A DNA stretch of 64,000 bases. Source: Candidatus Liptonbacteria bacterium. GTDB lineage: Bacteria > Patescibacteriota > Minisyncoccia > UBA6257 > 2-01-FULL-56-20. Of the stretch, positions 3,203 to 62,487 are shown one piece after another (position 1 is the stretch's first letter; the number at the start of each line of letters is the position of its first letter). The stretch is from positions 12,507-76,506 of the forward strand of contig JACQKW010000013.1 of the NCBI GenBank assembly GCA_016204385.1. Reading direction: 5' to 3'. The position numbers and the translations under genes are program-made. A model generated the notes under the pieces. The model was not told the origin of the DNA. It worked only from the letters and a program-made list of their open reading frames with translations, and ran no database searches.

Positions 3203-4585
3203 TTATATCATAGATTGAATACCTCGAAGTTTTTTGTGATAGGTGATCGCAAAGCGGTGCGCTTCGTCGCGGACGCGGATGAGCGTTCTTTTCTCTACGC
3301 CCTTGGGGATTATGCCGATTATGTCGTTACGTTTCCGCTCCGGGCCTTTCGCGATGCCGATCACAGGAATTTTAAGGCCGGCCTCGGAGAGCACGTGCTT
3401 CGCCGCATTTACCTGTCCCCTGCCGCCGTCAATCAAAATGAGATTCGGAAGCGGCCACCCTAAATCGCCGTGGGCGATCGGGTGTCTGAACCGCCGCCGA
3501 AGCACTTCTTTGAGCATTCCCACATCGTCCGATTTCTGGATTGTCCGAATTTTGAACTTGCGATACTCGTTTTTATCGGGCTTGTCTCCTCTGAAAACCA
3601 CCATCGAGCCCACCGCGGACGTTCCGGAAATGTTCGAGATGTCATAGCCCTCGATGCGATAATGAGGAGTGAGAATTGAGAAGTGAGTAGTGAGCTCGTT
3701 GTCGCCGATTAAGGCAACATCCTGAATGTGCTGTAGCGCAAAAATCTGGCGGCGAATTGTTTCCGCTTTTTCAAATTCAAGCGCTTTGCTCGCCGCCTTC
3801 ATTTCATGTTCAAGCGACGTGAGGATCATCCCCTTTTTGCCGCGAAAGAACAGCTTGAGATTCTTGATATTCTTTGCATACTCTTTTTGGTTTATCGCAC
3901 CCACGCACGTGCCCGGGCAAAGCCCGATTTCATATTCAAAGCATGGCCGCCTTCGGCTCTCATAATGCGAATCTTCGAATGTGTGCGAATGCTGCCTGCC
4001 CGACTTTGCCTGAGGCAAACTCAGGCGGGCGGGCGAATTGCGAATCCACCGATTGTCGACTGGCAGATTTGGATGAGTACCATAAGGGAAAATTCGCCGC
4101 ATGATTTTGAGCGCCTCGCGGATGCTCCCGGCCGAAGTAAACGGTCCATATCTCTCCCCTGCCGGTTTGGACTTGCCTGCCTGCCCAAGGCCCCGCATTT
4201 GCGGAGCCTCGCCTTTGGCGGGGCGTGGCCGATAGACATGGCCGCGCACAAGGAGGACGCGCGGAAACGCTTCTTTCGTGAACTCCACATAGAGAAAACT
4301 CGTGTCGTCTTTCTCGCGGACATTGTAGGGCGGCTGGTGCTTCTTGATGAGTTCCGCTTCAAGAATAAGCGCCTCGATTGCCGTGTCGGTTTTCTTATAC
4401 TCGATCTTTTTAATTTCGCGTACGAGCTTTTGGATGCGGTAGTCGTGTGGGCGCAGAAAATAGCTCGACACCCGCCGCCGCAAGTTTCCCGCTTTGCCGA
4501 TGTAGAGAATTTTGCCTCTCTCGCCCTTCATGAGATAAACGCCGGGCGAAATAGGCAATTTTTCATAAAGAGTTTTCATGTTCAC
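3203..4585 (-). CDS. uvrC: excinuclease ABC subunit C (short form, no C-terminal HhH2)
   Basis: GIY-YIG N-terminus (PGVYLMKGERGKILYIGKAGNLRRRVSSYF), UVR-like helix (LEHEMKAASKALEFEKAETIRRQIFAL), and an endonuclease domain ending RDEAHRFAITYH. Contains repeat-derived in-frame inserts (see findings). Confidence 0.88.
   Translation of the reverse strand: MNMKTLYEKLPISPGVYLMKGERGKILYIGKAGNLRRRVSSYFLRPHDYRIQKLVREIKKIEYKKTDTAIEALILEAELIKKHQPPYNVREKDDTSFLYVEFTKEAFPRVLLVRGHVYRPRPAKGEAPQMRGLGQAGKSKPAGERYGPFTSAGSIREALKIMRRIFPYGTHPNLPVDNRWIRNSPARLSLPQAKSGRQHSHTFEDSHYESRRRPCFEYEIGLCPGTCVGAINQKEYAKNIKNLKLFFRGKKGMILTSLEHEMKAASKALEFEKAETIRRQIFALQHIQDVALIGDNELTTHFSILTPHYRIEGYDISNISGTSAVGSMVVFRGDKPDKNEYRKFKIRTIQKSDDVGMLKEVLRRRFRHPIAHGDLGWPLPNLILIDGGRGQVNAAKHVLSEAGLKIPVIGIAKGPERKRNDIIGIIPKGVEKRTLIRVRDEAHRFAITYHKKLRGIQSMI
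3667..3694. repeat. 4 x 7-bp tandem NNNTGAG repeat inside uvrC
   Basis: gagtgag aattgag aagtgag tagtgag. It encodes LTTHFSILTPH on the minus strand. Confidence 0.7.
3988..4045. repeat. palindromic element B, copy 1 (in frame inside uvrC)
   Basis: aatgctgcctgcccgactttgcctgaggcaaactcaggcgggcgggcgaattgcgaat. About 96% identical to 62400..62454. Internal dyad cctgagg/ctcagg and outer gcctgcccg/cgggcgggc. Confidence 0.85.
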
Positions 4586-4653: not shown

Positions 4654-4692
4654 TACTGTCCTGTTTGACGACCGTTCAGTAGGACAGTAATT
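4654..4692. repeat. hairpin element F, copy 1
   Basis: tactgtcctgtttgacgaccgttcagtaggacagtaatt with an 8-bp stem actgtcct/aggacagt. Paralogous to 9578..9616. Confidence 0.7.
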
Positions 4693-4781: not shown

Positions 4782-7700
4782 CTACCGTTCGTACATTTTC
4801 CAGTTCCCGAGCATGATCTGTCCGATGCTCGTGTCCTGCCACACGACATCCCAACCCCTCAACGCAGTCGGCGATAAAGGATCGTACCTCAAGATCGTTG
4901 GCGGCGATGGCAGCGTTACGCTGAGCGGAAGGTTGGTCCCGGGGTTCACGACAATGATTTCGTCTTTTGTGTCGGGCCCAACCACAAGCGCGATCAATTC
5001 TGCTCGAAGTCGGGCCTCCTGCGCCGCTATTTTCCCTAATTTTTGGTCCTCATTCTTTTTGTCCTTTGCATCGGTTGAGCTTATAAGCGCGCTCAATTCC
5101 GCTCGAAGTCGGGCTTCCTGCGCCAATAGTTTCTCTAATTTTTTGCCCTCATTCTTGCCGTGTGTTTCATTTTGTCTGCCGTTCTTCCCTTTTCCATTCG
5201 AGTCGAGCGGAGTGCCGAGCGTTTCTTCATCGGGCGGCGGCGGCGCGAACACATTTGGCCTTGTGTTGGGCGCGTTCACATTCCCTGCGTAGAGACGGTC
5301 GCCGGAGCGGAGTTGGTGGACGCCAAACATGCTCCCTTCAAGAGGCCCGGTAAAGTATTTGAGCGACCACGTGCTTGAGGGAGCATTGAAGTTTTGCGCA
5401 TGCAGGAATGACGGATTATGGCTTATCAATTCGTCTACCCCGTCCCCGTCAATATCCGCAGAGAGAAAAGCATCTTCTAAACTGTGGCCTGTCACGCCAA
5501 GATTCCATGACCCGATTGTACCGAACACGCGAGGTGTAACGAGGCGGTCTGGACTGTCGTTCCACTGCGTGACCCAATCGTTGAATGCAGTATTGAAGTT
5601 TTGGATCTGTGCGTTTGTGCCGTCGTTCACACCATCTCTATTCTGGTCACCGTCACGACCTTGAAATATGTTTAGGAGGCCTATGGTCGAAAAGAGACTT
5701 TGGGTGGACGTTGCTGCATCAAGATTCAGAAAGTTGAACTGATCTCCGAATCGAATCGGCCAACTTGATTCGTTTCCACATCCTCGTGGGCTACATACGC
5801 TTGAAGCCGTCAGCTGATGCGAATACCTTGCCATTTCCTGCCAAGGATCTGCTCCACCTCGGAAGCGGATAATGCTTGCCTCGGAAATTCCGCCTGCTCC
5901 CGGGGAGAAGCGCTCGCGAGCATTATTCCCGATATAAGGATACATGATGAGCATTTCCTCCCGCTCGTCCGGCTCGTTCCCGAAATTCCCGATATTTCCA
6001 AATATGATCATGTCCGTGGGATGCAGTTTCCACGGGCCCAGCATGCCGCTAATAATGCCGCTCACGCTGTCCCGGTTATCCCACACGGTTTCCCACGAAT
6101 AGGTCGCGGTCGCGCAGTCAAACCCGCCGCTCCGGAAGATTTTCTGGAGCATGGCGCGCGCCGGAGTCCCCGCGCTTATGCTTAAAAGTTCTGCTCTCCC
6201 CTCAAGCGCGAAGAGCCGCGTTTCGGGCAGGAAGAACCGGTCGCCCTTGTCTATCGTCCACGCGCCAAGCGAACCCTGTCCTTGCGAAATGACATTCCAG
6301 ATACCGTCCCTGAATTGCTGAACCATGAATTTTTTCGTCATCGTGTTTACGGTGAGCACCTCGTTTCCGCATCCGGTCATGTCGCCCACGAGCACGATGT
6401 CGCTTGACGGTATTTTCCCTTTGTCGGCATAGGTTCCGTCGCTCCACAACAGCTTATTAGAAAATTCTTCCTGCGAAGTGAACCTGTCCAATTCGTTGAA
6501 AATAAAAGCTTCGGTCGAGGTTGGGGGCCTCACGCCGGCGGTAAAGACGTGTTCCACATTAACTGGCTCGTACCAAATGGCGTCAAACGGGGAGTTCGAT
6601 TTGACGTTCGGATCCATTTGGAATCCAAACTTCGATTGGTCTTCCGGCGCGTACCAGATGTCGCTTGGGACGGTTTGCGGTCCTGCTACGCCATACTCAA
6701 CCTCAGTAACCCATCCGTAGCTTATTTCTTTCCGGGTGGTGACATTTTCGGTGACCGAACTTGTGCCCGCCGCTTCATAATTCAATGCGCTAAAGAGAGG
6801 GATAAACGGGCTGTGATCGAGCTGAGATGTGATATTGCACGGCGGCCCGTTTTCGCATCTCAACATAGCTGGAGCCGTTGAGTTGTTGAACTTATCTTTA
6901 AGCTTTCGCGCCGCAAAGGTTGAGCCGCCGGGGATCATATCCAAATCCTGCCATCCGCTTAAAATTTCATATTCGTAAGATAAATATAACGATCTGCCTA
7001 TGGGAATTCGTATAGGAGGACCAAAGGGATCTAAGGGATTTGGAATTATGATAAACCCGGCTGGCTTTGTTACCCACGCATCGAGAATTCTCTCTCCCGC
7101 AGTTCTCGAAACCCCTTCGGTTCGAGCATCAATATCAAGGCCGTACCACAAGCTTCTGAAAGTGATGGACTCGAGATGTTCAAACGTTCGGGCAAGAAAG
7201 TCGTTAGATTGCTTTACTACATTATCCTGGGTAAGTCCCTGGCCGCTCCCCTGCGACATCGCCACCTTTCGCAGTTTCTGCGGCATACCGGTGCCGCCGT
7301 TTAACGCCCTCACCTCGTCGTAGAACCTGGAGTGATAGCTATCCGGGAATACCAAGCCGGTATTGTAGTGCCGCCGGAGCAGTTCCTTTGCCGCTGGGCT
7401 GTTGATGGCAATGCGGAACGGTATTGCGTCGTCGTTAAATTGCGAGAGGAAATCGAAAAGTCCCTGCAAGCTCACGGGAATGTGGGCGCCCACAAACGGG
7501 CCGTCAATCGCGATCCAGAGGCCCGTGTGGTGGTCTATGTTCTGCCCCTCGAGCTTCGCCAAGGCATAGCGCGTAACCTGCGTGCCCATCGAACCCGCCA
7601 TTACGATAGCCCGCTGGTTTTCATATCCCGGCTTCATGGTAAGCCACGGCTTGGGAAGATGAATGTTTTTCAAAATCTCCATAAGCGCAAATGCATTCCT

Positions 7701-9338
7701 CTGGATAAAATCCTGGCCGTTCGCGTAATCCACGAGAAGAACGTCATACCCTTTGTCACGCATCTTGTTGACGGTCGGTTCCAGATCGCGGTACAAAGTG
7801 GTTGGAGTCCTGTTCTGCTCTATGTCAAAGCCGTCCACAAGAATGACTAAATTTTTTACAAAGCAACGGTCGGGATCAAAAACAGGTTTCCGATACGTCG
7901 CAGGATAGATGCGCGTGTTTAAAATGCCGGAGGCCGTGTTGCCCAAGTAGTCAGCGTAGAGAGGGCCGGTTACTTTAGGATCCTCTCGTTCTTGGTCATG
8001 AATTCCCAGCCAATCGATTACTTGAGACAAGTCGGCGATGGTGTAGCGGTAGGGGGCAAAGAATACCGGCCAAGGAATTTCGGCTGAATTCCACCACGGA
8101 GGAGTGCTTGTCGCATTAAAGAACGCTCCGGCGCTTGTCTGCGGCGGCCACTCCGCCTCTGGCCACCATACTGGCCTCACCTTAGGAAACTTTCCCTGAA
8201 GAAGCTTTGGAATGCTGCAATCGGTTCCCCTGTTCCCGCCGGGCGGCGGATAGTAATCAACGGTACCCACCGCGTATCGGACTTGGCCATCAATGGTTGC
8301 GCGGATGTGATAGGTGAGGTGCGCCACCATAGTGACGCCTGGCGGCGCCTCTTGCACGAATGTTGCCCGGGACATGTCCCACGGATATTTTTGATCGAGT
8401 TCAACGGGGATAAACGTGTCCGGACTAATGCCGTCTCCGCGCGGCACGCCGGGAAATCTGATGGCAAGGTCAGTAACCGTCTTTGAAGCCGGGTTCTTGA
8501 TTGCAAACTGCGATGGCAGTGAAAAAAGCAGGTAGTTTCCGATCGTGCCGTCGGCCTTCTCATTCAAAAATCCTGTGCCGAAGAAAAGAGAGGTGAGCGG
8601 CGTGGTTGAACTCGCGGGAGTTTCTTTGACATAAGAAATTCTCCCGTCTCCGCGAACCCAATTCTTCTGAAAATCTTGATTGAAAGGAGTGCTTGTTGGA
8701 TATGGAGTCCCGTCTTCATAGAAAAGACTTAGGCGGCCGTTCGTAAAATCCTCCGGATTGAGTTCGTTGTAGTCTATGGCGCCGATCGCGATTGGATTCA
8801 CGCCGCCCTCGACGATCGGCTGCGCCGCCAATGCAAGATTATCCGCCTTCGGCAGGAGATTTTCATTCGTAAACGCACTCCTCCGAAGATCCCCGTACGC
8901 ATTCCGAAGATCGGAGTGGGAAAGCTTGATAGCTTCAAACGTCTGTGGCAAACCCTCGGTCGCAATGCCATTCGCCTTCTTTACGAGGTCCGTATATAAT
9001 ATCGAACCCATGTCAAGCAGGATGCCGGTCCCGATCTTCGCCGCAGGATAGTTTTCATACGTTTCTCTAGTGTTATCTCGAAACGTCGGCAGCGGGCCTT
9101 GGTTCCCTCCACCAAACGGGTCTAGGTTATCACCAGGGTTTTTGATTATCGGCGTCGTGCCGCCGATGGGAAAATCTATGGGCGGTTCTGCACAGTTATC
9201 GAGGAGAGCGCAGTTGTCGCCCGGAAATTGGGCGTACGCGACAAATGCGAACAGAAAAACGGCAAGCGTGGCAAAGCTCGCCGCAAGAATTATCTGTAGC
9301 TTTTTTCCGCCGACCCAGCTTGTAAGATGAGGCGACAT
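4782..9338 (-). CDS. giant secreted protein (~1518 aa) with lipase-like alpha/beta-hydrolase core, FG-GAP/VCBS-like segment and C-terminal coiled-coil repeats
   Basis: Signal anchor KKLQIILAASFATLAVFLFAFVAYA. Nucleophile-elbow-like AGSMG in RAIVMAGSMGTQVTRYAL. DIDGDGVDELI calcium-binding/FG-GAP-like motif. 33-aa tandem repeat (AQEARLRAEL...). The ORF-track start at 9392 lies in repeat DNA; the start at 9338 (MSPHLTSWVGGKK) is preferred. Confidence 0.75.
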   Translation of the reverse strand: MSPHLTSWVGGKKLQIILAASFATLAVFLFAFVAYAQFPGDNCALLDNCAEPPIDFPIGGTTPIIKNPGDNLDPFGGGNQGPLPTFRDNTRETYENYPAAKIGTGILLDMGSILYTDLVKKANGIATEGLPQTFEAIKLSHSDLRNAYGDLRRSAFTNENLLPKADNLALAAQPIVEGGVNPIAIGAIDYNELNPEDFTNGRLSLFYEDGTPYPTSTPFNQDFQKNWVRGDGRISYVKETPASSTTPLTSLFFGTGFLNEKADGTIGNYLLFSLPSQFAIKNPASKTVTDLAIRFPGVPRGDGISPDTFIPVELDQKYPWDMSRATFVQEAPPGVTMVAHLTYHIRATIDGQVRYAVGTVDYYPPPGGNRGTDCSIPKLLQGKFPKVRPVWWPEAEWPPQTSAGAFFNATSTPPWWNSAEIPWPVFFAPYRYTIADLSQVIDWLGIHDQEREDPKVTGPLYADYLGNTASGILNTRIYPATYRKPVFDPDRCFVKNLVILVDGFDIEQNRTPTTLYRDLEPTVNKMRDKGYDVLLVDYANGQDFIQRNAFALMEILKNIHLPKPWLTMKPGYENQRAIVMAGSMGTQVTRYALAKLEGQNIDHHTGLWIAIDGPFVGAHIPVSLQGLFDFLSQFNDDAIPFRIAINSPAAKELLRRHYNTGLVFPDSYHSRFYDEVRALNGGTGMPQKLRKVAMSQGSGQGLTQDNVVKQSNDFLARTFEHLESITFRSLWYGLDIDARTEGVSRTAGERILDAWVTKPAGFIIIPNPLDPFGPPIRIPIGRSLYLSYEYEILSGWQDLDMIPGGSTFAARKLKDKFNNSTAPAMLRCENGPPCNITSQLDHSPFIPLFSALNYEAAGTSSVTENVTTRKEISYGWVTEVEYGVAGPQTVPSDIWYAPEDQSKFGFQMDPNVKSNSPFDAIWYEPVNVEHVFTAGVRPPTSTEAFIFNELDRFTSQEEFSNKLLWSDGTYADKGKIPSSDIVLVGDMTGCGNEVLTVNTMTKKFMVQQFRDGIWNVISQGQGSLGAWTIDKGDRFFLPETRLFALEGRAELLSISAGTPARAMLQKIFRSGGFDCATATYSWETVWDNRDSVSGIISGMLGPWKLHPTDMIIFGNIGNFGNEPDEREEMLIMYPYIGNNARERFSPGAGGISEASIIRFRGGADPWQEMARYSHQLTASSVCSPRGCGNESSWPIRFGDQFNFLNLDAATSTQSLFSTIGLLNIFQGRDGDQNRDGVNDGTNAQIQNFNTAFNDWVTQWNDSPDRLVTPRVFGTIGSWNLGVTGHSLEDAFLSADIDGDGVDELISHNPSFLHAQNFNAPSSTWSLKYFTGPLEGSMFGVHQLRSGDRLYAGNVNAPNTRPNVFAPPPPDEETLGTPLDSNGKGKNGRQNETHGKNEGKKLEKLLAQEARLRAELSALISSTDAKDKKNEDQKLGKIAAQEARLRAELIALVVGPDTKDEIIVVNPGTNLPLSVTLPSPPTILRYDPLSPTALRGWDVVWQDTSIGQIMLGNWKMYER
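4986..5160. repeat. 2 x 99-bp tandem repeat inside the giant gene
   Basis: aagcgcgatcaattctgctcgaagtcggg... at 4986 and aagcgcgctcaattccgctcgaagtcggg... at 5085. Period 99 bp = 33 aa. Confidence 0.8.
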
Positions 9339-9382
9339 GTGAGTATGTGGAGAGCATAGTGCGGGGGGCTTAGGGGTGTCAA

Positions 9383-9521
9383 ACCCCCACACCTAACGTG
9401 GAGGTGTATTCACCTCGAAGCCCACACAATTCTTCACTACTCGTTGTTTTGGGGCATACCCTGTTTCAAGCAGATAACGCAGAATACCTTTTGCTTCGCG
9501 CTCCCCGTTAGGTGTGGGGGT
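9383..9521. repeat. 16-bp perfect inverted repeats flanking a 107-bp segment upstream of the giant gene
   Basis: acccccacacctaacg (9383-9398) and cgttaggtgtgggggt (9506-9521). Confidence 0.85.
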
Positions 9522-9577: not shown

Positions 9578-9616
9578 TATTGTCCTGTCTGACGGTCGTT
9601 CAATGGGACAGTAATT
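9578..9616. repeat. hairpin element F, copy 2
   Basis: tattgtcctgtctgacggtcgttcaatgggacagtaatt. About 81-88 bp further on it is followed by an aaaaaagaccgccc terminator-like hairpin (9667-9698), the same layout as copy 1. Confidence 0.7.
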
Positions 9617-10255: not shown

Positions 10256-13009
10256 TTATTTCAAAACTCGTCTCAAATACTCGCCCGTAAAACTCTCCTT
10301 TTTTCTTGAGATCTCCTCGGGCGTCCCGGCGGCGACCACTCTGCCGCCCTTGTCGCCTCCTTCGGGACCAAGATCAATCACCCAGTCGGCGGTTTTGATC
10401 ACATCTAAATTGTGTTCGATTACGACCACCGTATTTCCGCGCTCGACGAGCCGCTGGAGGACTTTGAGTAAATTGTCTACGTCCGCAAAATGGAGTCCGG
10501 TTGTCGGTTCATCAAGTAAATAAAGCGTTCTCCTCGTGTCACGTTTTCCAAGCTCCGCCGAGAGCTTGATCCTCTGCGCCTCTCCGCCCGAGAGCGTGGT
10601 GGCAGATTGGCCGAGTTCCAAATAGCCCAAGCCCACGTCTTCCAAAATGCTCAAGCGGTCGTGGAGATGCGGGATATCTTTAAAGAATTTCACCGCTTCC
10701 TCGATTGTGAGTTTTAGGATATCGTAGATGTTTTTACTTGCGCTCCTATCTTTCGAAGAAAGATGGGAGGGTGAATACTCTACTTCAAGCGTCTCGCGGT
10801 CGAAACGCTTGCCTTTGCACACTTCGCATTCCACGTAGACCGTCGGCAAAAAGTGCATTTCTATCGCGATATAGCCGTGCCCCTCGCAGTTCTCGCACCT
10901 GCCGCCCGGGACGTTGAAGCTGAACCGCCCGGGTTTCCAGCCGCGCACGCGCGCGTCCTCGGTTGAGGCAAAAAGCTCGCGGACAAACGTCCACGCGCCC
11001 ACGTAGGTTGCCGGATTCGAGCGCGGCGTGCGTCCTATGGGCGACTGGTCAATGTTGATGACGCGGTTAATGTACTCGGTGCCGAGAATCGCATTGACTG
11101 AGGTTGGTCTGTGCCGCCCCGACGCTCCAGTCGGGGTCCCGACCCCGCGGTAGCGGGCGTCGGGATTGAACTTGTTTGCAAGCGTCTTAAAAATCACATC
11201 GTAGACCAAGCTCGATTTTCCCGAACCCGAGACGCCGGTCACCGCCGTAAGGCGCCGCAAGGGAACATCCACGTTGATATTCTGCAAATTATTTGCCGTG
11301 GCGCCTTTCACTTTTAGAAAATCATGTCCGCCAGCTGGCGGATTCGCGACCTTCCGCCGCTCTTTCGGCACTTCGATGAACTGGTGGCCGCGAAGATAGT
11401 CGAGCGTGAGCGAATTGTTCTTTTTTACATCCTTAATGATTTCTGGGATTGTTCCCTGCGCGATGATTTTCCCGCCGTGCACTCCCGCACCCGGCCCGAT
11501 ATCCACCAAATAATCGCTCTTACGGATGGTCTCCTCGTCGTGCTCGACCACGATGATGGTGTTCCCGAGGTCGCGGAGCTCGTGGAGCGTCTTGATGAGT
11601 TTCGCGTTGTCCTTTTGGTGGAGGCCTATGGTCGGCTCGTCCAAAATATAGAGCGTTCCCACGAGCCGCGAGCCGATCTGCGAGGCGAGCCGGATGCGCT
11701 GTGATTCTCCGCCGGAGAGCGTCCCCGCCCTCCGTTCGAGCGTGAGATAATCGAGCCCCACGTCAATCATGAACTTCAGACGGTTTTTTATCTCGCGGAG
11801 CGGTGTTTCCGCAACAAGATAGCGGCCCGTTGCCGGTTGGCCGCTATCTTGTTTAAAACCCAGCGGTTTTAACCCGCTCTCCGCCGGTTGGCGGATCGCT
11901 TTTCCGCCACGGGAAAACTCCCGTTTTCCCGACCCCTTTCCCTCGTCTCGTAATTCTTCGAATTTCGATCCGCCTTCCTTAAGCTGTGCTTCGAGCTTAC
12001 CGAAAAACTCATGCGCGTGCGCGATCGAAAATTCCACCACGCTTGCGATATTCTTCCCGTCAATTAATACATTCAAGCTCTCTTCGCGCAAGCGTTTTCC
12101 GAGGCATGCAGGACAGATCTTTTCCGACCATATTTCTTCCGTGCCAAGCCCGTGGCACGTTTGGCAGGCGCCGTAGGGGCTATTGAAAGAAAAAAGGCGC
12201 GGTTCGATCTCGGGAAACGAAAAACTGTCCTGCGGGCAGGTGAATTTTGCTGAAAGAGAAATTTCGTCGTCCGTAATGATCGTTACCACGTCATTTCCAT
12301 ACTTAAGGGCGGATTCTATCGCTTCCGCTAATCGAAGCCGGTTGTCCTTGTCTTTATAATCCATACCTGACGGAATGCGATCCACCACAAGCTCTATCGT
12401 GTGCTGTTTGTACCGCGAGAGTTCTATGCGGTCGCGGAGCATGTGCATTTTTCCGTCAATCCGCACCTCGCGGAATCCGGCGTTCAGGAAATCGTAGAGC
12501 ATCTGGTAGTACTCCCCCTTTCTGCCCCGCACGGCAGGGGCGAGAATGAGTAAGTTTTTTCCTGATTTGTTCTTTCCTGCGATATCAATAACGGCATCCA
12601 CGATCTCCTCGTTCGTCATCTTTTTGATCTCCCTGCCGCATTTTGGGCAGAACGGTTTCCCGAGGCGCGCAAAAAGCACGCGGAGATAGTCGTAGATTTC
12701 GGTGATCGTCGCGACCGTCGAGCGCGGATTGTGCGAGTGGCTTTTCTGGTCTATGGAAATCGAGGGCGAGAGGCCTTCTATTTCGTCCACGTCCGGTTTG
12801 TCCAAGCGTCCCAAAAACTGCCGCGCGTACGCCGAGAGCGATTCGATGTAGCGCCGCTGGCCTTCGGCGAAGATCGTATCGAACGCCAAGCTCGATTTCC
12901 CCGAACCGGAAAGCCCCGTAAAGACGATCATCTTGTCGCGCGGGATTTCAAGATTGATGTTCTTTAAATTGTGCTCGCGTGCGCCGCGGATTATGATTTT
13001 ATCCTTCAT
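10256..13009 (-). CDS. uvrA: excinuclease ABC subunit A
   Basis: [20 protein letters not shown] start. Walker [24 protein letters not shown] and a second [11 protein letters not shown]. Zinc modules CPKC...CQTCHG and CENCEGHG...CEVCKG. ABC signatures LSGGE. The ORF-track N-terminal extension (to 13108) was rejected. Confidence 0.95.
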
Positions 13010-13101
13010 GAACGATGAAAACTCCCCTCCGAGCCGCCTAGTAGGGGGGTACAGAAGAAGTGTAACGCGTAATTTTAAAAAATGCAACGATCTGCAAACA
13101 T

Positions 13102-13133
13102 TTAACAATTCCTACGATCGTAGGAATTGTTAA
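13102..13133. repeat. perfect 32-bp palindrome with ACGATCGT core
   Basis: ttaacaattcctacga|tcgtaggaattgttaa, about 95 bp upstream of the uvrA ATG. Confidence 0.9.
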
Positions 13134-14552: not shown

Positions 14553-16667
14553 TCAGGTTTTATGGCTAAGAATTCTTCGCTGTTGGCTTGAATTCTTAGA
14601 CAAAGCCCTTATTTCATCGCGAAGAATCGCCGCTAATTCGAAATCCAATTGCCGCGCCGCTTCCTTCATCTCGCGTTCTTTTTTCTTTATGAGTTCGGCA
14701 ATTGCGGTTTTTGATTTCGGGAGTGGTTTTGTCTCAAGCGCAAGAATTTCGTCAATATTCGGCAGTATATCCTTTATCTCTTTTTTGATCGTCGTGGGCG
14801 TGATGCCGTGTTTCTTGTTGTACTCAAGCTGGAGTTCTCTTCTACGCTCGGTTTCATCTATCGCGCGCCGGATGGAGCCCGTGATGTGGTCGGCGTAGAT
14901 CAGGACTTCTCCCGCTACGTTTCGCGCCGCGCGGCCGATGGTCTGGATAAGCGACGTCTCGCTCCTTAAAAATCCTTCTTTGTCGGCGTCCAAAATCGCC
15001 ACAAGCGACACCTCGGGCAAGTCCAACCCCTCTCGGAGAAGGTTCACTCCCACAAGCACGTCAAATTCCCCTTTCCGCAAGCTCGTCAAAATCCGTATCC
15101 GGTCGAGCGTTTTTACGTCGCTGTGAAGATAGGTCACTTTCATTTTTCCCAATAACTTACCATCGTGACGATCGTTAGGATGGTAAGTTGAGAGATATTC
15201 TGTTAAGTCCTCGGCCATTTTCTTTGTGAGCGTTGTGACAAGCACTCGTTCTTTTTTCGCCACGCGTCCCTCTATTCGCGGTATCAAGTCATCCACCTGT
15301 CCTCGCGCGGGGCGCACGGTGATCTTCGGGTCCACAAGGCCTGTGGGGCGGATGATCTGCTCCACGATCTGCCCTAAGCTCGCTTGCCCTGAGGTACTCG
15401 AATGGGTTGAAGGGTCGCTCTTTTTTCGCTCGTATTCCGAGGGCGTTGCCGAGGTATAGATGATCTGCCCGACCCGCTCGCCGAATTCCTTAAAGGTAAG
15501 AGGGCGGTTGTCGGCGGCGGACGGCAGTCGAAAACCGTATTCGATGAGGGTTTTCTTCCGCGAGGCGTCTCCGGCATACATGCCGTTTAACTGCGGCACG
15601 GTCACATGCGATTCGTCAATTACCGTAAGAAAATCGGCTTGCCCTGAGGTACTCGAATGGGTCGAACGGGGGAAATAATTAAGCAATGTCTCCGGCGGTT
15701 CCCCTGCGGCGCGGCCGGATAAGTGCCGTGAATAATTTTCGATGCCGTGGCAGTAGCCGACTTCCTTCATCATGGCGATATCGAACTTTGTGCGCCGCTC
15801 GAGGCGTTCCGCCTCAAGAAACAGTTTCTTGTTTTCAAAATACTTCAGCCGTTCTTTGAGCTCTTCTTTAATTGCCGTGATCGCGCGCTCCCGCTCAAGC
15901 GGAGGCGTGATGAAGTGCTTTGCTGGCGCGATATAGATTTCTGACACCGTCGGGGTTTTCTCGGGAACAAAACCTTTCACGGGGTCAATCTCATAAATTT
16001 TCGTTATCACGCCGTTCTTGAGTTCAAAATTATAAATCACTTCCCTGTCCGGAGGCATTACTTCCCAATTGTCGCCGCGGAGTCGGTACGTGCCGCGCTT
16101 GAGGTCGCTCGTCGTGCGCGTAAATTGAAGCTCAATGAGCTTTCGGGCAAATTTCTTGCGGTCAATCCTGTCCCCTACTTTGAAATGGAAAATGTTTTCC
16201 GCATAGACCTCCGGCGCGCCTAAACCGTAGATGCAGGAAACGGACGCCACCACGATCACATCAGGCCGCGTAAGGAGCGCGGTCGTCGCCGCATGCCGGA
16301 GCTTGTCTATCTCGTCGTTGATCATCGCCTCTTTCTCGATATACGTGTCGGTCGTCGGCATGTACGCCTCCGGCTGGTAGTAGTCGTAGTATGAGACGAA
16401 ATAGTTCACGGAATTGTTCGGAAAAAGCTCGCGGAATTCGTTTGTAAGCTGGGCGGCAAGCGTTTTGTTGTGCGCGATCACGAGCGTGGGTTTCTGAATC
16501 TCCGCGATCACGTTCGCGACCGTAAACGTCTTCCCGCTTCCGGTAACCCCAAAAAGCGTCTGGTGCCCATAACCCTTCTTAATGCCTTCCACGAGCGCGC
16601 GAATGGCTTTCGGCTGATCACCCGAGGGTTTGAATTTTGAGATTAGTTTGAATGACTTTTGTAACAT
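14553..16667 (-). CDS. uvrB: excinuclease ABC subunit B
   Basis: [22 protein letters not shown] start. Walker [15 protein letters not shown] box ([11 protein letters not shown]), helicase motifs, C-terminal UVR domain ([13 protein letters not shown]). Carries two identical 26-bp in-frame inserts. Confidence 0.95.
15155..15188. repeat. imperfect 34-bp palindrome with ACGATCGT core inside uvrB
   Basis: acttaccatc-gtgacgatcgttag-gatggtaagt. Encodes [13 protein letters not shown] on the minus strand. Confidence 0.75.
15382..15407. repeat. 26-bp exact direct repeat, copy 1 (in uvrB)
   Basis: gcttgccctgaggtactcgaatgggt. Encodes THSSTSGQA. Confidence 0.9.
15637..15662. repeat. 26-bp exact direct repeat, copy 2 (in uvrB)
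   Basis: Identical 26-mer 255 bp from copy 1, also in frame (THSSTSGQA). Confidence 0.9.
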
Positions 16668-16700
16668 CTCTATACGGCAAAAACCGCCTGCGTCTTGGGA

Positions 16701-16750
16701 TGCAGGGGTACTGCAAAAGAAATTGTAGACTACTTGAACCAAGAAATCAA
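16701..16750 (-). promoter_or_regulatory. putative uvrB promoter (TTGATT-17-TACAAT) with TGCAG-N5-CTGCA dyad at the predicted start site
   Basis: Minus strand: TTGATT (16750-16745), 17-nt spacer, TACAAT (16727-16722). The dyad TGCAGTACCCCTGCA lies at 16715-16701. Confidence 0.5.
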
Positions 16751-28209: not shown

Positions 28210-29286
28210 TTATTCCAGACAACATGGTTTATATCCTTCATAAAAGAACGGGATAACCATGCCCGCAGACGCATGATGCACGTGGTGACAGTGAAAAAGC
28301 CACACCCCGGGGTTATCAGCCACTATCTCGATATCGTAGCGCTCGCCGGGAAGCACCGGGAGATTATCTCTCATTTGTTGAGCGATTTGAGGTACTGGAT
28401 TCCCATCAATCGCCACCACTTTGAAGGAGTGGCCGTGGGTGTGCATGGGGTGGATTTCTTGAGTCCCGGCGTTAATAAGCCGAATCAAGACACGCTCTCC
28501 TTCTTTGACCATGAGAGTTTCCGTATCCGGGAAAACGCGGCCATTGATAGTAAAGATATTATAATTTGGCATTTTGTGGACATGTTCTCCTTCTCCTTCC
28601 TCTGCATGATCAAGCGCCCCATTTGATCCGTCTGGATTGATTTCCCATTCATCCAGCATATAGACGTACTCTCGGTCGTATTTTTGAGGATTTTTTGATT
28701 CAATAATGAACGCTCCATAAAGGCCCATGTCCAACTGAGTGACTGCGTCTACATGGGAAGAACCATGAGTATGGTAAAAGTGCGTACCGGCATTTTTGGC
28801 AGTAAACTCATACGTAAACGTTTCTCCGGGCTTAATGGGGTACTGCGTGAGTCCGGGCACGCCGTCGGCTTTGTTTTCTACATGCACCCCGTGCCAATGG
28901 AGAGAAGTGCCGACCGGCAAATTATTTTTTACTACCACCCGCACTTTATCGCCTTCAGTAACGCGAATTTCCGGTCCGGGAACTTGACCGTTGTATGCCC
29001 ACGCATGGACGAATTTGCCTGTCCCGAGCGCAGTCGAGGGGCCTTTGGCGTATTCCCATCGAATTTCATCGAGAGTGAGCTCGAATTCTTTTATCCCGTC
29101 TTTTGTGGTCGGCGCAAAAGCCGTCCTGGTACTTGGCGTTTTAAGCGGTAGTTTCTCAAGATTGGCAGTAGAGGAATGCGGCGTGTCATGATTTTTTTCC
29201 GAGGTCTGATTTCGAGAAACAGAAACGATCCCGACAACGAGCGCGAGCGCTATTATAATACCGATGAAGATTTTGATGTCCCGCAT
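28210..29286 (-). CDS. multicopper oxidase
   Basis: Copper ligand motifs HWHG, HTHGSSH, HPMHTHGH, HCHHVHHASAGM. Confidence 0.85.
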   Translation of the reverse strand: MRDIKIFIGIIIALALVVGIVSVSRNQTSEKNHDTPHSSTANLEKLPLKTPSTRTAFAPTTKDGIKEFELTLDEIRWEYAKGPSTALGTGKFVHAWAYNGQVPGPEIRVTEGDKVRVVVKNNLPVGTSLHWHGVHVENKADGVPGLTQYPIKPGETFTYEFTAKNAGTHFYHTHGSSHVDAVTQLDMGLYGAFIIESKNPQKYDREYVYMLDEWEINPDGSNGALDHAEEGEGEHVHKMPNYNIFTINGRVFPDTETLMVKEGERVLIRLINAGTQEIHPMHTHGHSFKVVAIDGNPVPQIAQQMRDNLPVLPGERYDIEIVADNPGVWLFHCHHVHHASAGMVIPFFYEGYKPCCLE

Positions 29287-49916: not shown

Positions 49917-50017
49917 CCGGGTCGTCCCCGGCTTGGATAGTTACTCGCGTAGCTCTCTCGAGTCGGGGCATTGCCCCTTAATTATCTATACAAGTATAAC
50001 CGATTTTTCAGGATAAA
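49917..50017. repeat. ~100-bp direct repeat, left copy
   Basis: ...cggcttggatagttactcgcgtagctctctcgagtcggggcattgccccttaattatctatacaagtataaccgatttttcagg... matches 53076..53174 at about 85-90%. Confidence 0.85.
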
Positions 50018-53075: not shown

Positions 53076-53174
53076 CCGGGTTGGCCTCGGCTTGGATAGT
53101 TACTCACGTAGCTCTCTCGAGTCGGGGTATTGCCCCATTAACTCGTACAGTATAACCGATTTTTTGAGGAAAAT
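53076..53174. repeat. ~100-bp direct repeat, right copy
   Basis: ...cggcttggatagttactcacgtagctctctcgagtcggggtattgccccattaactcgtacagtataaccgattttttgagg... Confidence 0.85.
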
Positions 53175-53237: not shown

Positions 53238-54683
53238 ATGGTCACCAAAAAACAAAAACAAATTTGGGATTTTGTTCAAAAATTTCTTTCCCAAAAAGGA
53301 TTCTCTCCCACCCACGAAGAAATAAGAAAACATTTCAAACTTCGGGCTGTTTCAACGGTTGCGCAGCATATTAAAGCACTAGAAAATAAGGGGCTTATTG
53401 CCAAACAAAGCAATCAAAGACGCGGTATTGAAATCACAAAATCAGAGCCGTTAGTAAAAATTCCCCTCCTCGGCACAATTAGTGCGGGTCAACCCATAGA
53501 AGCAATTCAAGACAAGGAAATGATCGCTGTTCCTAAGAGCAAAATTCCTCCTTCGTCAGAAGTTTATGCTCTCCGGGTAGTCGGCAGTAGTATGGTTGAT
53601 GAAAATATAAATGATGGGGACATTGTTTTGGTCCGCCAACAAGCAACAGCAGAGAATGGGCAAAAAGTTGTAGCTCTTATTGATAACCACGATGCGACAC
53701 TAAAGAAGTTTTATAAAGAGCGAGGGTATGTCCGTTTGCAACCAGCAAACAAAACTATGGAGCCGCTTATTTTCCGAAACGGGCGGGATATTTCAATACA
53801 AGGGATAGTGCTTGATGTTATTCGCGAGGAGGGAAATTCTAAGATTCAATTATCAGAGGAATATAAAGAATCGGGAAGGAGTCTATTACAAAATGCATAT
53901 TATAAAAAGCAGGGATTTATTCTGTATCATGGAAATTCTTTAGGTATCCTATCTAAACTTCCGGAAGCTTCCGTAGATATGATTTTTTCAGATCCTCCGT
54001 ACAATCTTTCAAATGGAGGGTTTACTGTCCACGCGGGTAGAATGGTTAGTGTTAATAAAGGTGAGTGGGATAGAAGTAAGGGATTTCAGGATGATTACGA
54101 CTTCCATTACAATTGGCTCGCGGCCGCTAAAAGGGTTTTGAAGCCTGGTGGTAGTTTATGGGTTAGTGGAACCTATCATTCGATTTACCAATGCGGTTAT
54201 GCACTTCAGGCTCTTGGCTACCATATTTTGAATGACATCTCGTGGTTTAAGCCCAATGCGGCGCCAAATTTAAGTTGTAGATTTTTCACGGCGAGTCATG
54301 AAACTTTAATATGGGCGAGGAAAGAAAAAAAAGGAAAACATATTTTTAATTATAAAACGATGAAAGATGGGATTTGGAATGGAGACTTTCTCAAAAAACC
54401 TAATATGCAAATGCGTTCAGTGTGGGCTATTGGAACTCCAAAACCAGAAGAAAAAAAATTTGGCAAACATCCAACCCAAAAACCTTATGAACTATTGAAG
54501 CGCATTGTTCTTGCCAGCACTAACAAGGGAGATTTAATTATTGATCCTTTTACCGGTAGTTCAACAACGGGCATGGCGGCATATCTCCAAAACAGAAATT
54601 TCATCGGTATCGATACCGAAAAGAAATATTTAGATTTATCTATCAAGAGATTGGAAGATCTGAGTAAAAGATCTCTAGTATAG
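53238..54683 (+). CDS. LexA-like repressor (wHTH + S24 peptidase) fused to beta-class N6A/N4C DNA methyltransferase (CcrM/HinfI-like)
   Basis: Residues 1-200 contain the LexA DNA-binding domain (THEEIRKHFKLRAVSTVAQHIKALENKGLI), the cleavage site ISA83-G84QP, GSS117M and ATLK155KF. Residues about 230-481 contain FSDPPYNL (motif IV) followed by IIDPFTGSSTTGMAA (motif I), i.e. beta-class order. TATAAT (53226-53231) ends 7 nt before the ATG, so the transcript may be leaderless. Confidence 0.85.
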   Translation: MVTKKQKQIWDFVQKFLSQKGFSPTHEEIRKHFKLRAVSTVAQHIKALENKGLIAKQSNQRRGIEITKSEPLVKIPLLGTISAGQPIEAIQDKEMIAVPKSKIPPSSEVYALRVVGSSMVDENINDGDIVLVRQQATAENGQKVVALIDNHDATLKKFYKERGYVRLQPANKTMEPLIFRNGRDISIQGIVLDVIREEGNSKIQLSEEYKESGRSLLQNAYYKKQGFILYHGNSLGILSKLPEASVDMIFSDPPYNLSNGGFTVHAGRMVSVNKGEWDRSKGFQDDYDFHYNWLAAAKRVLKPGGSLWVSGTYHSIYQCGYALQALGYHILNDISWFKPNAAPNLSCRFFTASHETLIWARKEKKGKHIFNYKTMKDGIWNGDFLKKPNMQMRSVWAIGTPKPEEKKFGKHPTQKPYELLKRIVLASTNKGDLIIDPFTGSSTTGMAAYLQNRNFIGIDTEKKYLDLSIKRLEDLSKRSLV

Positions 54684-62367: not shown

Positions 62368-62487
62368 GCGTGATGCAAATCTACAAATTTTATGCCAATA
62401 ATGCCTGCCCGACTTTGCCTGAGGCAAGCTCAGGCGGGCGGGCAAATTGCGAATACGGATTAGTGATCATTAGATTGGCATTATCAT
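62368..62487. repeat. repeat element A copy 2, with element B (62400..62454) nested inside
   Basis: gatgcaaatctacaaattttatgccaata[B]cggattagtgatcattagattggcattatcatc. The B core is gcctgcccgactttgcctgaggcaagctcaggcgggcgggc. Confidence 0.8.

Follow-up and report, generated by a model that had tools for sequence, protein, structure and literature searches.

The uvrB gene and its two 26-nt copies

The 64-kb stretch of Candidatus Liptonbacteria DNA analyzed here (the window) carries uvrB on its minus strand at 14553–16667, with MLQKSF as the probable start (the open reading frame (ORF) list gives 14553–16742), together with uvrC (3203–4585) and uvrA (10256–13108). The best homologues of the uvrB product are 73–79% identical and come from Patescibacteria, in several cases under the name Candidatus Liptonbacteria (homologue search), and solved UvrB structures match the ORF at E = 2.5e-240 (PDB search). 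Within this gene, the 26-nucleotide (nt) sequence GCTTGCCCTGAGGTACTCGAATGGGT occurs exactly twice, at 15637–15662 (site 1) and 15382–15407 (site 2), and each occurrence is one copy of a 24-nt unit of 8 codons with the consensus CCCTTCGACAAGCTCAGGGCARGC. Below, WIN denotes the uvrB of the window, L-numbers denote DNA loci or contigs, and P-numbers denote homologous proteins.

No further match to the 26-mer with ≤3 mismatches is present in the window, where shuffled sequences predict 0. Similarity between the two copies stretches to 33 nt (31/33 identical), with a start-to-start spacing of 255 nt. Both lie in the same frame of the minus-strand ORF and, with the coding sense ACCCATTCGAGTACCTCAGGGCAAGC, yield the same 10-residue peptide, so that the two identical in-frame 26-bp segments reported in a preliminary description of this DNA are indeed present. 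One copy falls between YFPR and the next conserved stretch, the other between two conserved UvrB segments. The same description held that E. coli UvrB lacks these segments; alignment with solved UvrB structures (9gy7_E and others) agrees, opening gaps of 10 and 14 amino acids (aa) at exactly those places and a third gap of 12 aa, which corresponds to an extra 12-residue segment flanked by YL and KVTYLHSD.

At site 1, the 24-nt unit occupies 15637–15660 (minus strand; coding sense CCATTCGAGTACCTCAGGGCAAGC), within the 26-mer and within a 10-codon insert at 15636–15665. A 9-nt partial tandem duplication of the 5′ part of this unit (CGT TCG ACC; 15660–15668, minus strand) overlaps its first base. 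At site 2, an identical copy of exactly 24 nt (15382–15405, minus strand) is nested in an older, degenerate unit on the same strand, splitting it into a 5′ half at 15406–15414 (coding sense CCCTTCAAC) and a 3′ half at 15369–15381 (coding sense GAGCTTAGGGCAG). Read in the coding sense, site 2 is composed of GACCCTTCAAC, then CCATTCGAGTACCTCAGGGCAAGC, then GAGCTTAGGGCAG, the middle block measuring 24 nt.

When the nested 24 nt are left out, site 2 becomes CCCTTCAACGAGCTTAGGGCAG, which is identical to the canonical CCCTTCGACAAGCTCAGGGCAG at 19 of 22 positions, and the rejoined outer blocks encode DPSTSLGQ, equal in length to the DPSTGSGQ that is common in relatives. Because the outer halves rejoin to such a unit, one 24-nt insertion into an older unit explains site 2. 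The two WIN copies also have three private substitutions in common (GAGTACCTC versus canonical GACAAGCTC) that are not found in the site-1 units of the related loci L084 and L086; this makes the site-1 copy, or an identical master copy as yet unseen, the most likely template of the copy at site 2.

Variable loops of UvrB and their inserts in relatives

In an alignment of 120 UvrB homologues, no columns vary more than those of sites 1 and 2 and of a third site, that of the 12-residue segment, in a protein that is otherwise highly conserved. Minimal loop forms are YFPDDFLT at site 1, YERKKSKQIVEQ at site 2, and YLEEKKIKV at site 3, and inserts in other lineages measure 6 to about 45 residues. 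Site 1 peptides frequently end in S-G-Q-A-D; at site 2, some lineages have DPSTGSGQ, DPSTHSGQGQ, or DPSINSGQGQ and others Q-ACPEPSRG or Q-ACPELSKG, and site 3 of P0003 includes LRQAQGE. In an AlphaFold model (mean predicted local distance difference test score 78), the WIN inserts form low-confidence coil between confident strands. The earlier placement of the inserts inside conserved regions of uvrB was not borne out, given that the three loops are hypervariable among related UvrBs and low-confidence coil in the model. This is mostly reassuring, as it makes the repeats decorations of tolerant loops and not damage to helicase motifs, and their effect on UvrB, judged from the variability of the loops, is probably neutral.

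The third site coincides with a palindrome, described previously as 34 bp long (15155–15188) and confirmed here as a 36-nt element at 15154–15189 (no strand assigned). It forms an in-frame insert of 12 codons at the 12-aa gap relative to PDB UvrB and at a hot spot of the alignment; its 18-nt arms are 89% complementary around the center ACGATCGT, and it is unique in the window. In relatives, site 3 holds other modules, for example GGERSRTT, which is also seen at site 1 of other lineages. At a fourth hot spot of UvrB (FELRD^G), L206 (1304–1333; the uvrB of P0074) has 30 inserted nt with the unit variant CTCTCGACAGAGCTCGGGGCAAGC and the peptide LSTELGASGT, and this insert is missing from a 92%-identical gene.

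We compared eleven related uvrB loci at the DNA level; a scan of genome contigs for related loci with whole UvrB was dominated by universal UvrB motifs and returned distant bacteria only. Site 1 of L086 reads CCC CAT TCG ACA AGC TCA GGG CAG GCC GAT and contains the canonical 21-mer exactly, and site 1 of WIN is the L086 arrangement plus the 9 nt of the partial tandem duplication. L084 has the same site-1 length and architecture as WIN, including the 9 extra nt, at about 70% identity. Since WIN and L084 share this architecture, site 1 is old: it predates the split of the two and was vertically inherited. At site 2, L081 carries GAC CCT TCG ACT CAC TCA GGG CAA GGG CAG, a positional homologue of the WIN insert.

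In relatives, these UvrB loops contain the unit in either orientation, as PSTxSGQA or as ACPEPSRG. Inserts of the ACPEPSRG type are exactly 8 codons long, and their reverse complement aligns with the forward type, as when CCCCCGACTCGGCTCGGGGCAGGC (L084) is reverse-complemented and aligned with CCCTTCGACTCACTCAGGGCAAGG (L081); the reverse-orientation UvrB variant was not found in viral contigs. With ≤2 mismatches allowed, a 15-nt core matched five times at these uvrB sites and twice elsewhere in 795 kb. On a neighbor-joining tree, the empty, forward, and reverse states lie scattered. Site 2 is empty in P0001, the closest relative, and the genes of P0025 and P0074, which are 92% identical at the nucleotide level, are distinguished at site 2 by a clean 24-nt indel and at the fourth site by a 30-nt indel. 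Conservation of the segment in diverse UvrBs, which the preliminary description had named as evidence against its view, was found only in the sense that related peptides recur within the clade; they are polymorphic in presence and orientation and hence not conserved.

A dispersed 24-nt unit and its precedents

The site-1 sequence of L086 resembled what we took to be a repeat known from translated metagenome proteins, which prompted a test for dispersal. The 21-mer TTCGACAAGCTCAGGGCARGC has 23 exact matches in viral contigs and a 17-mer has 114, and the exact 24-mer is present in at least 120 metagenome contigs from many projects, the GC content of the contigs being 0.32–0.70 among the matches listed. 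Flanks of the viral-contig copies are unrelated and the edges are sharp, with CCC at the 5′ edge; some copies are in tandem with a 24-nt period. A logo of 107 copies begins with CCC and ends with GCRRRC. Viral contig L112 has a dispersed copy to which the WIN 26-mer is identical at 23 of 26 positions, and the two ends of the 26-mer fall on those of the unit. Its membership in a widely dispersed repeat family had not been recognized in the preliminary description.

A length of 24 nt equals 8 codons, so the unit never shifts the reading frame. Five of its six frames are stop-free (PFDKLRAG, PSTSSGQA, LRQAQGR, ACPELVEG, and PALSLSK), and the sixth contains TGA. We removed the unit in silico from 98 metagenome singletons and scored a frame as open when ≥50 codons were available on both sides. 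The unit lies in an open frame in 46 of the 98, with the PSTSSGQ frame the commonest (18) and the stop frame depleted (3). A GyrA from a contig of 43% GC carries the unit in frame, with an 8-residue gap relative to PDB GyrA, and in a contig of 32% GC the unit lies in a protein read as a restriction specificity (HsdS-like) subunit.

The window itself holds a third copy, CCCTCGACTGCGCTCGGGACAGGC, at 29017–29040 (minus strand), where it is read as GPSTALGT in the frame of a multicopper oxidase gene (28210–29286); it scored 19.3 bits in a position-weight-matrix scan whose threshold, set from shuffles, was 16.2. An alignment of the oxidase with PDB structures stopped short of the insert, and a homologue search was used in its place: 58 of the 60 homologues lack GPSTALGT, the closest (88% identical) among them, and one homologue at 84% identity has it. 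At the DNA level, the unit is a clean 24-nt indel relative to an 87%-identical gene, and this distribution suggests precise loss or recombination. Unit-like copies outside uvrB were also detected in the relatives' contigs L083 and L207 (weight-matrix scan).

Among 136 copies there was no excess of 2–6 nt flanking direct repeats of the kind left by target-site duplication, and at the clean indels the junction ambiguity is at most 1–4 nt. Sixteen of 132 singletons sit as a loop between host-specific inverted repeats, compared with two in controls, which hints at insertion into hairpin loops. In many high-GC contigs (L211, L257, L272, L284, L287, L303, and others), the exact 24-mer followed by TCT makes up the loop of a hairpin, and the host stems around it differ in sequence, for example GGACAGCCG/CGGCTGTCC and GAGCGGGCA/TGCCCGCTC. 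Tandem arrays of up to seven units with a 24-nt period (22–23 nt in L230) and A/G variants occur in L212 (1914–2081), L224, and L230. In L285, a sorbosone-dehydrogenase-like ORF contains a canonical DPSTSSGQA unit; later in the same ORF comes MDSTGSPQGED, which is nearly the site-1 peptide of L084 UvrB (MDSTGSPQAD).

Rfam gave no relevant match in the uvrB region or in eight unit-carrying loci, text searches of the literature for the unit peptides or DNA returned no description, and a topical search on in-frame repeats of the Candidate Phyla Radiation (CPR) found nothing. Cultured phage and plasmid collections contained weak matches only, among them a Pseudomonas phage match (TFDKLKAG) that is probably due to chance. 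We rejected a vector, adapter, or assembly origin of the 24-mer, because diverged copies occupy orthologous positions in different lineages; the depleted stop frame (3/46) and the spread over many projects and assemblers contradict it as well.

Among known repeats, the unit most resembles repetitive extragenic palindromic (REP) sequences located inside ORFs. Di Nocera, De Gregorio and Rocco (2013) described GTAG-/CGTC-tagged REPs of this kind, present as single units of ∼24 nt that add 7–9 residues in frame, in several frames and both orientations (PMC3733652). The decorated genes include uvrA, uvrB-like, uvrC, uvrD, recB, polA, and dnaE2, often as the only ones decorated in a genome, and a UvrB-like ORF of Rickettsia conorii has two single units at different sites (PMC3733652). 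The WIN unit is likewise ∼24 nt long and in frame, with several frames and orientations in use, and resides in repair genes. At 24 nt, with three copies in the window and at least 120 metagenome contigs, it also falls within the REP length range (20–40 bp) and occurs in multiple dispersed copies. Unlike REPs, it has neither a GTAG nor a CGTC tag in the logo of 107 copies and almost no stem, the consensus offering only 4 bp (CCCT/AGGG) against the 5–13 bp of REP stems. The WIN copies fold no better than shuffled sequences (z = 0.2 to 1.4), and the 6-bp stem of the reverse-orientation ACPEPSRG variant is not significant (z = −0.28); with no significant hairpin, a REP-like stem-loop mechanism is unsupported for the WIN copies. 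REPs are, moreover, species-specific, whereas the exact 24-mer is common to contigs of 32–70% GC.

Rickettsia palindromic elements (RPE) were reportedly described by Ogata et al. in 2000 as selfish in-frame repeats that occupy surface-exposed, tolerant positions and leave their host proteins functional. RPE-1 is 100–150 bp long, clearly palindromic, and confined to Rickettsia. The present unit differs in being 24 nt long, barely palindromic, and spread across very different genomes, with a Patescibacteria host here. Miniature inverted-repeat transposable elements, or MITEs, as generally defined, have terminal inverted repeats and target-site duplications and measure ≥50 bp, whereas the unit shows neither of these features and is 24 nt long. 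Two papers on bacterial MITEs in genes, for example in Coxiella, present them as small non-autonomous repeats that can add residues to proteins (PMC5896051, PMC10969869), a point in common with the unit. A within-gene tandem or slippage repeat was also rejected, as the WIN copies are 255 bp apart with unique conserved sequence between them; tandem arrays of the unit exist elsewhere. The closest precedent is thus the intragenic REP or RPE elements of repair genes, and the unit lacks the tag and stem of REPs and the hallmarks of MITEs.

Somewhat doubtful on present evidence, yet possible, is that the 24-nt unit represents an undescribed, promiscuous mini-insertion that may now be dispersing, with its 24 nt unchanged, among unrelated bacteria and phages (32–70% GC). 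The unit was found in essential genes (UvrB, GyrA), in host hairpin loops, and inside older copies of itself, and the mini-insertion reading suggests a new insertion mechanism, templated or targeted to hairpin loops. If it is true, the nested identical copy in uvrB would be a fresh event of such a mechanism. Were the mechanism of mobility new, the unit would be the smallest known self-propagating insertion and would explain the frequent decoration of DNA-repair genes raised by Di Nocera et al. (PMC3733652).

One exact 24-nt sequence thus lies in frame in many metagenome-derived proteins, including UvrB, GyrA, a restriction specificity subunit, and a multicopper oxidase. Such units can mislead alignments, domain boundaries, and phylogenies, and they generate spurious “hypothetical proteins”; they also serve as a dated marker of recent insertion events. 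In uvrB, the two direct repeats have a specific predicted consequence, named already in the preliminary description, a 255-bp in-frame deletion with loss of function. The interest of the case is moderate for uvrB itself and would rise should the 24-nt unit turn out to be a mobile entity not described before.

Origin of the nested copy and further features of the window

We consider it likely that the two 26-mers of uvrB are copies of the dispersed unit residing in tolerant loops, that the site-2 copy was recently made from the site-1 copy, and that both are neutral. On this account, small dispersed 24-nt units would have inserted into surface loops where UvrB tolerates additional residues and, translated in the PSTSSGQA-type frame, would have produced short Ser/Thr/Gly-rich loops. 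Both loops already contained such units in the ancestors of the lineage, as the comparison of related loci shows, and the site-1 unit gained the 9-nt internal duplication that it has in common with a relative. The site-2 copy would be a recent derivative of the site-1 copy, which lies 255 bp from it, and would probably have arisen by a template switch or by ectopic repair starting from the TTCRAC motif that both share, or else through the units' own machinery. The resulting inserts are probably neutral decorations without a function of their own.

Several observations weigh against this account. The WIN variant is known from its two copies only: exact searches for the 26-mer in genome and metagenome collections came back empty, as did one for its 21-nt core among viral contigs. 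As the comparison covered 64 kb, a third identical master copy may lie elsewhere in the source genome. The proposed copying route is derived from the arrangement of the copies, and target-site duplication is absent from the 136 copies analyzed; Pfam scans of 20 window ORFs contained no transposase, including REP-associated tyrosine transposases (RAYT). Neutrality, in turn, is deduced from the variability of the loops. Site 2 can also be parsed in another way, as an ancestral DPSTHSGQGQ, as in P0030, with two separate 9-nt gains; this takes two events and does not account for the unit-like GAGCTTAGGGCAG, and only a residual chance attaches to it.

The perfect identity of the copies had been taken at first to imply recent insertion or gene conversion, and of this the recent copying stands. 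Plain intragenic conversion, in which short-tract recombination homogenizes two paralogous inserts of equal length and no DNA is added, would fit the related units that relatives carry at both sites and the identical tract of 26–33 nt, 255 bp apart and so within short-patch reach. It is nevertheless unlikely: site 2 is 18–24 nt longer than the forward-orientation insert of any relative, and both halves of the older unit are kept around exactly 24 added nt, whereas replacement would overwrite the old 3′ half (GAGCTTAGGGCAG) and not leave it beside the new CTCAGGGCAAGC. Nor were there, in all probability, two new insertions, given that relatives have positional homologues of both. Independent recent arrivals from a WIN-variant master copy, each landing just after a resident TTCRAC, are made conceivable by clean unit-length presence/absence between close relatives, by exact 24-mers in genomes of 32–70% GC, which point to recent spread, and by the partial unit ending in TTCRAC that precedes the unit at both WIN sites. 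We nonetheless judge them quite improbable, because the length and the 9-nt duplication that site 1 has in common with L084 make it old and not recent, and no other copy of the variant turned up in the 64 kb or in any public collection searched.

The loops might alternatively be a selected protein feature, kept as flexible linkers, modification sites, or interaction sites of UvrB. Related peptides do recur at the same loops in many lineages, PSTSSGQA is the commonest unit frame in ORFs, and Di Nocera et al. raised, as speculation, a change of protein activity through REPs inserted in repair genes (PMC3733652). Against selection, the opposite orientation at the same loop gives the unrelated ACPEPSRG and site 3 uses another frame (LRQAQG), genes with 93% protein identity differ in the presence of a unit, P0001 has no insert at site 2 despite being the closest relative, and the loops are low-confidence coil in the AlphaFold model; a selected role is very unlikely in this light. 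An assembly artefact, by which one copy would stem from a misassembly across a short repeat, is conceivable for a genome that was probably assembled from a metagenome, yet each copy is in frame between unique conserved UvrB flanks, relatives have homologous inserts there, and a 26-nt repeat is shorter than the k-mers that assemblers usually employ, so we give it next to no weight. Recent copying of the site-1 unit into an older unit at site 2 remains the reading that we prefer.

Elsewhere in the window, a 62-nt palindromic element lies in frame in uvrC (3984–4045, minus strand; peptide IRNSPARLSLPQAKSGRQHSH), and a second copy, 92% identical to it, occupies an apparently intergenic position at 62393–62454 (no strand assigned). 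The uvrC copy resembles the canonical unit with a shuffle p = 0.014, and the second copy matches it at 18 of 23 positions (shuffle p = 0.002). The element may be an inverted dimer of the 24-nt unit family, its halves resembling the canonical unit. A core shared by the 26-mer and this uvrC/rplJ element had been proposed; their direct similarity is weak (shuffle p about 0.15), and the relationship holds to the extent that both resemble the canonical unit.

Between uvrC and uvrA, a 1536-residue ORF (4782–9392, minus strand) has no Pfam match. It contains an internal repeat (4986–5057 and 5085–5156, 99-bp spacing) and is bordered by near-identical 39-nt hairpin-like repeats at 4654–4692 and 9578–9616. 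A further ORF (53238–54683, plus strand) fuses a LexA DNA-binding domain and an S24 peptidase to an N6/N4 DNA methylase. The stretch around it, at 52–56 kb, is low in GC (0.39, against about 0.52 in the rest of the window) and looks foreign. At the edge of this low-GC region, 61-nt direct repeats (49917–49977 and 53076–53136; 92% identical, 3.1 kb apart) could be the boundaries of an inserted element.

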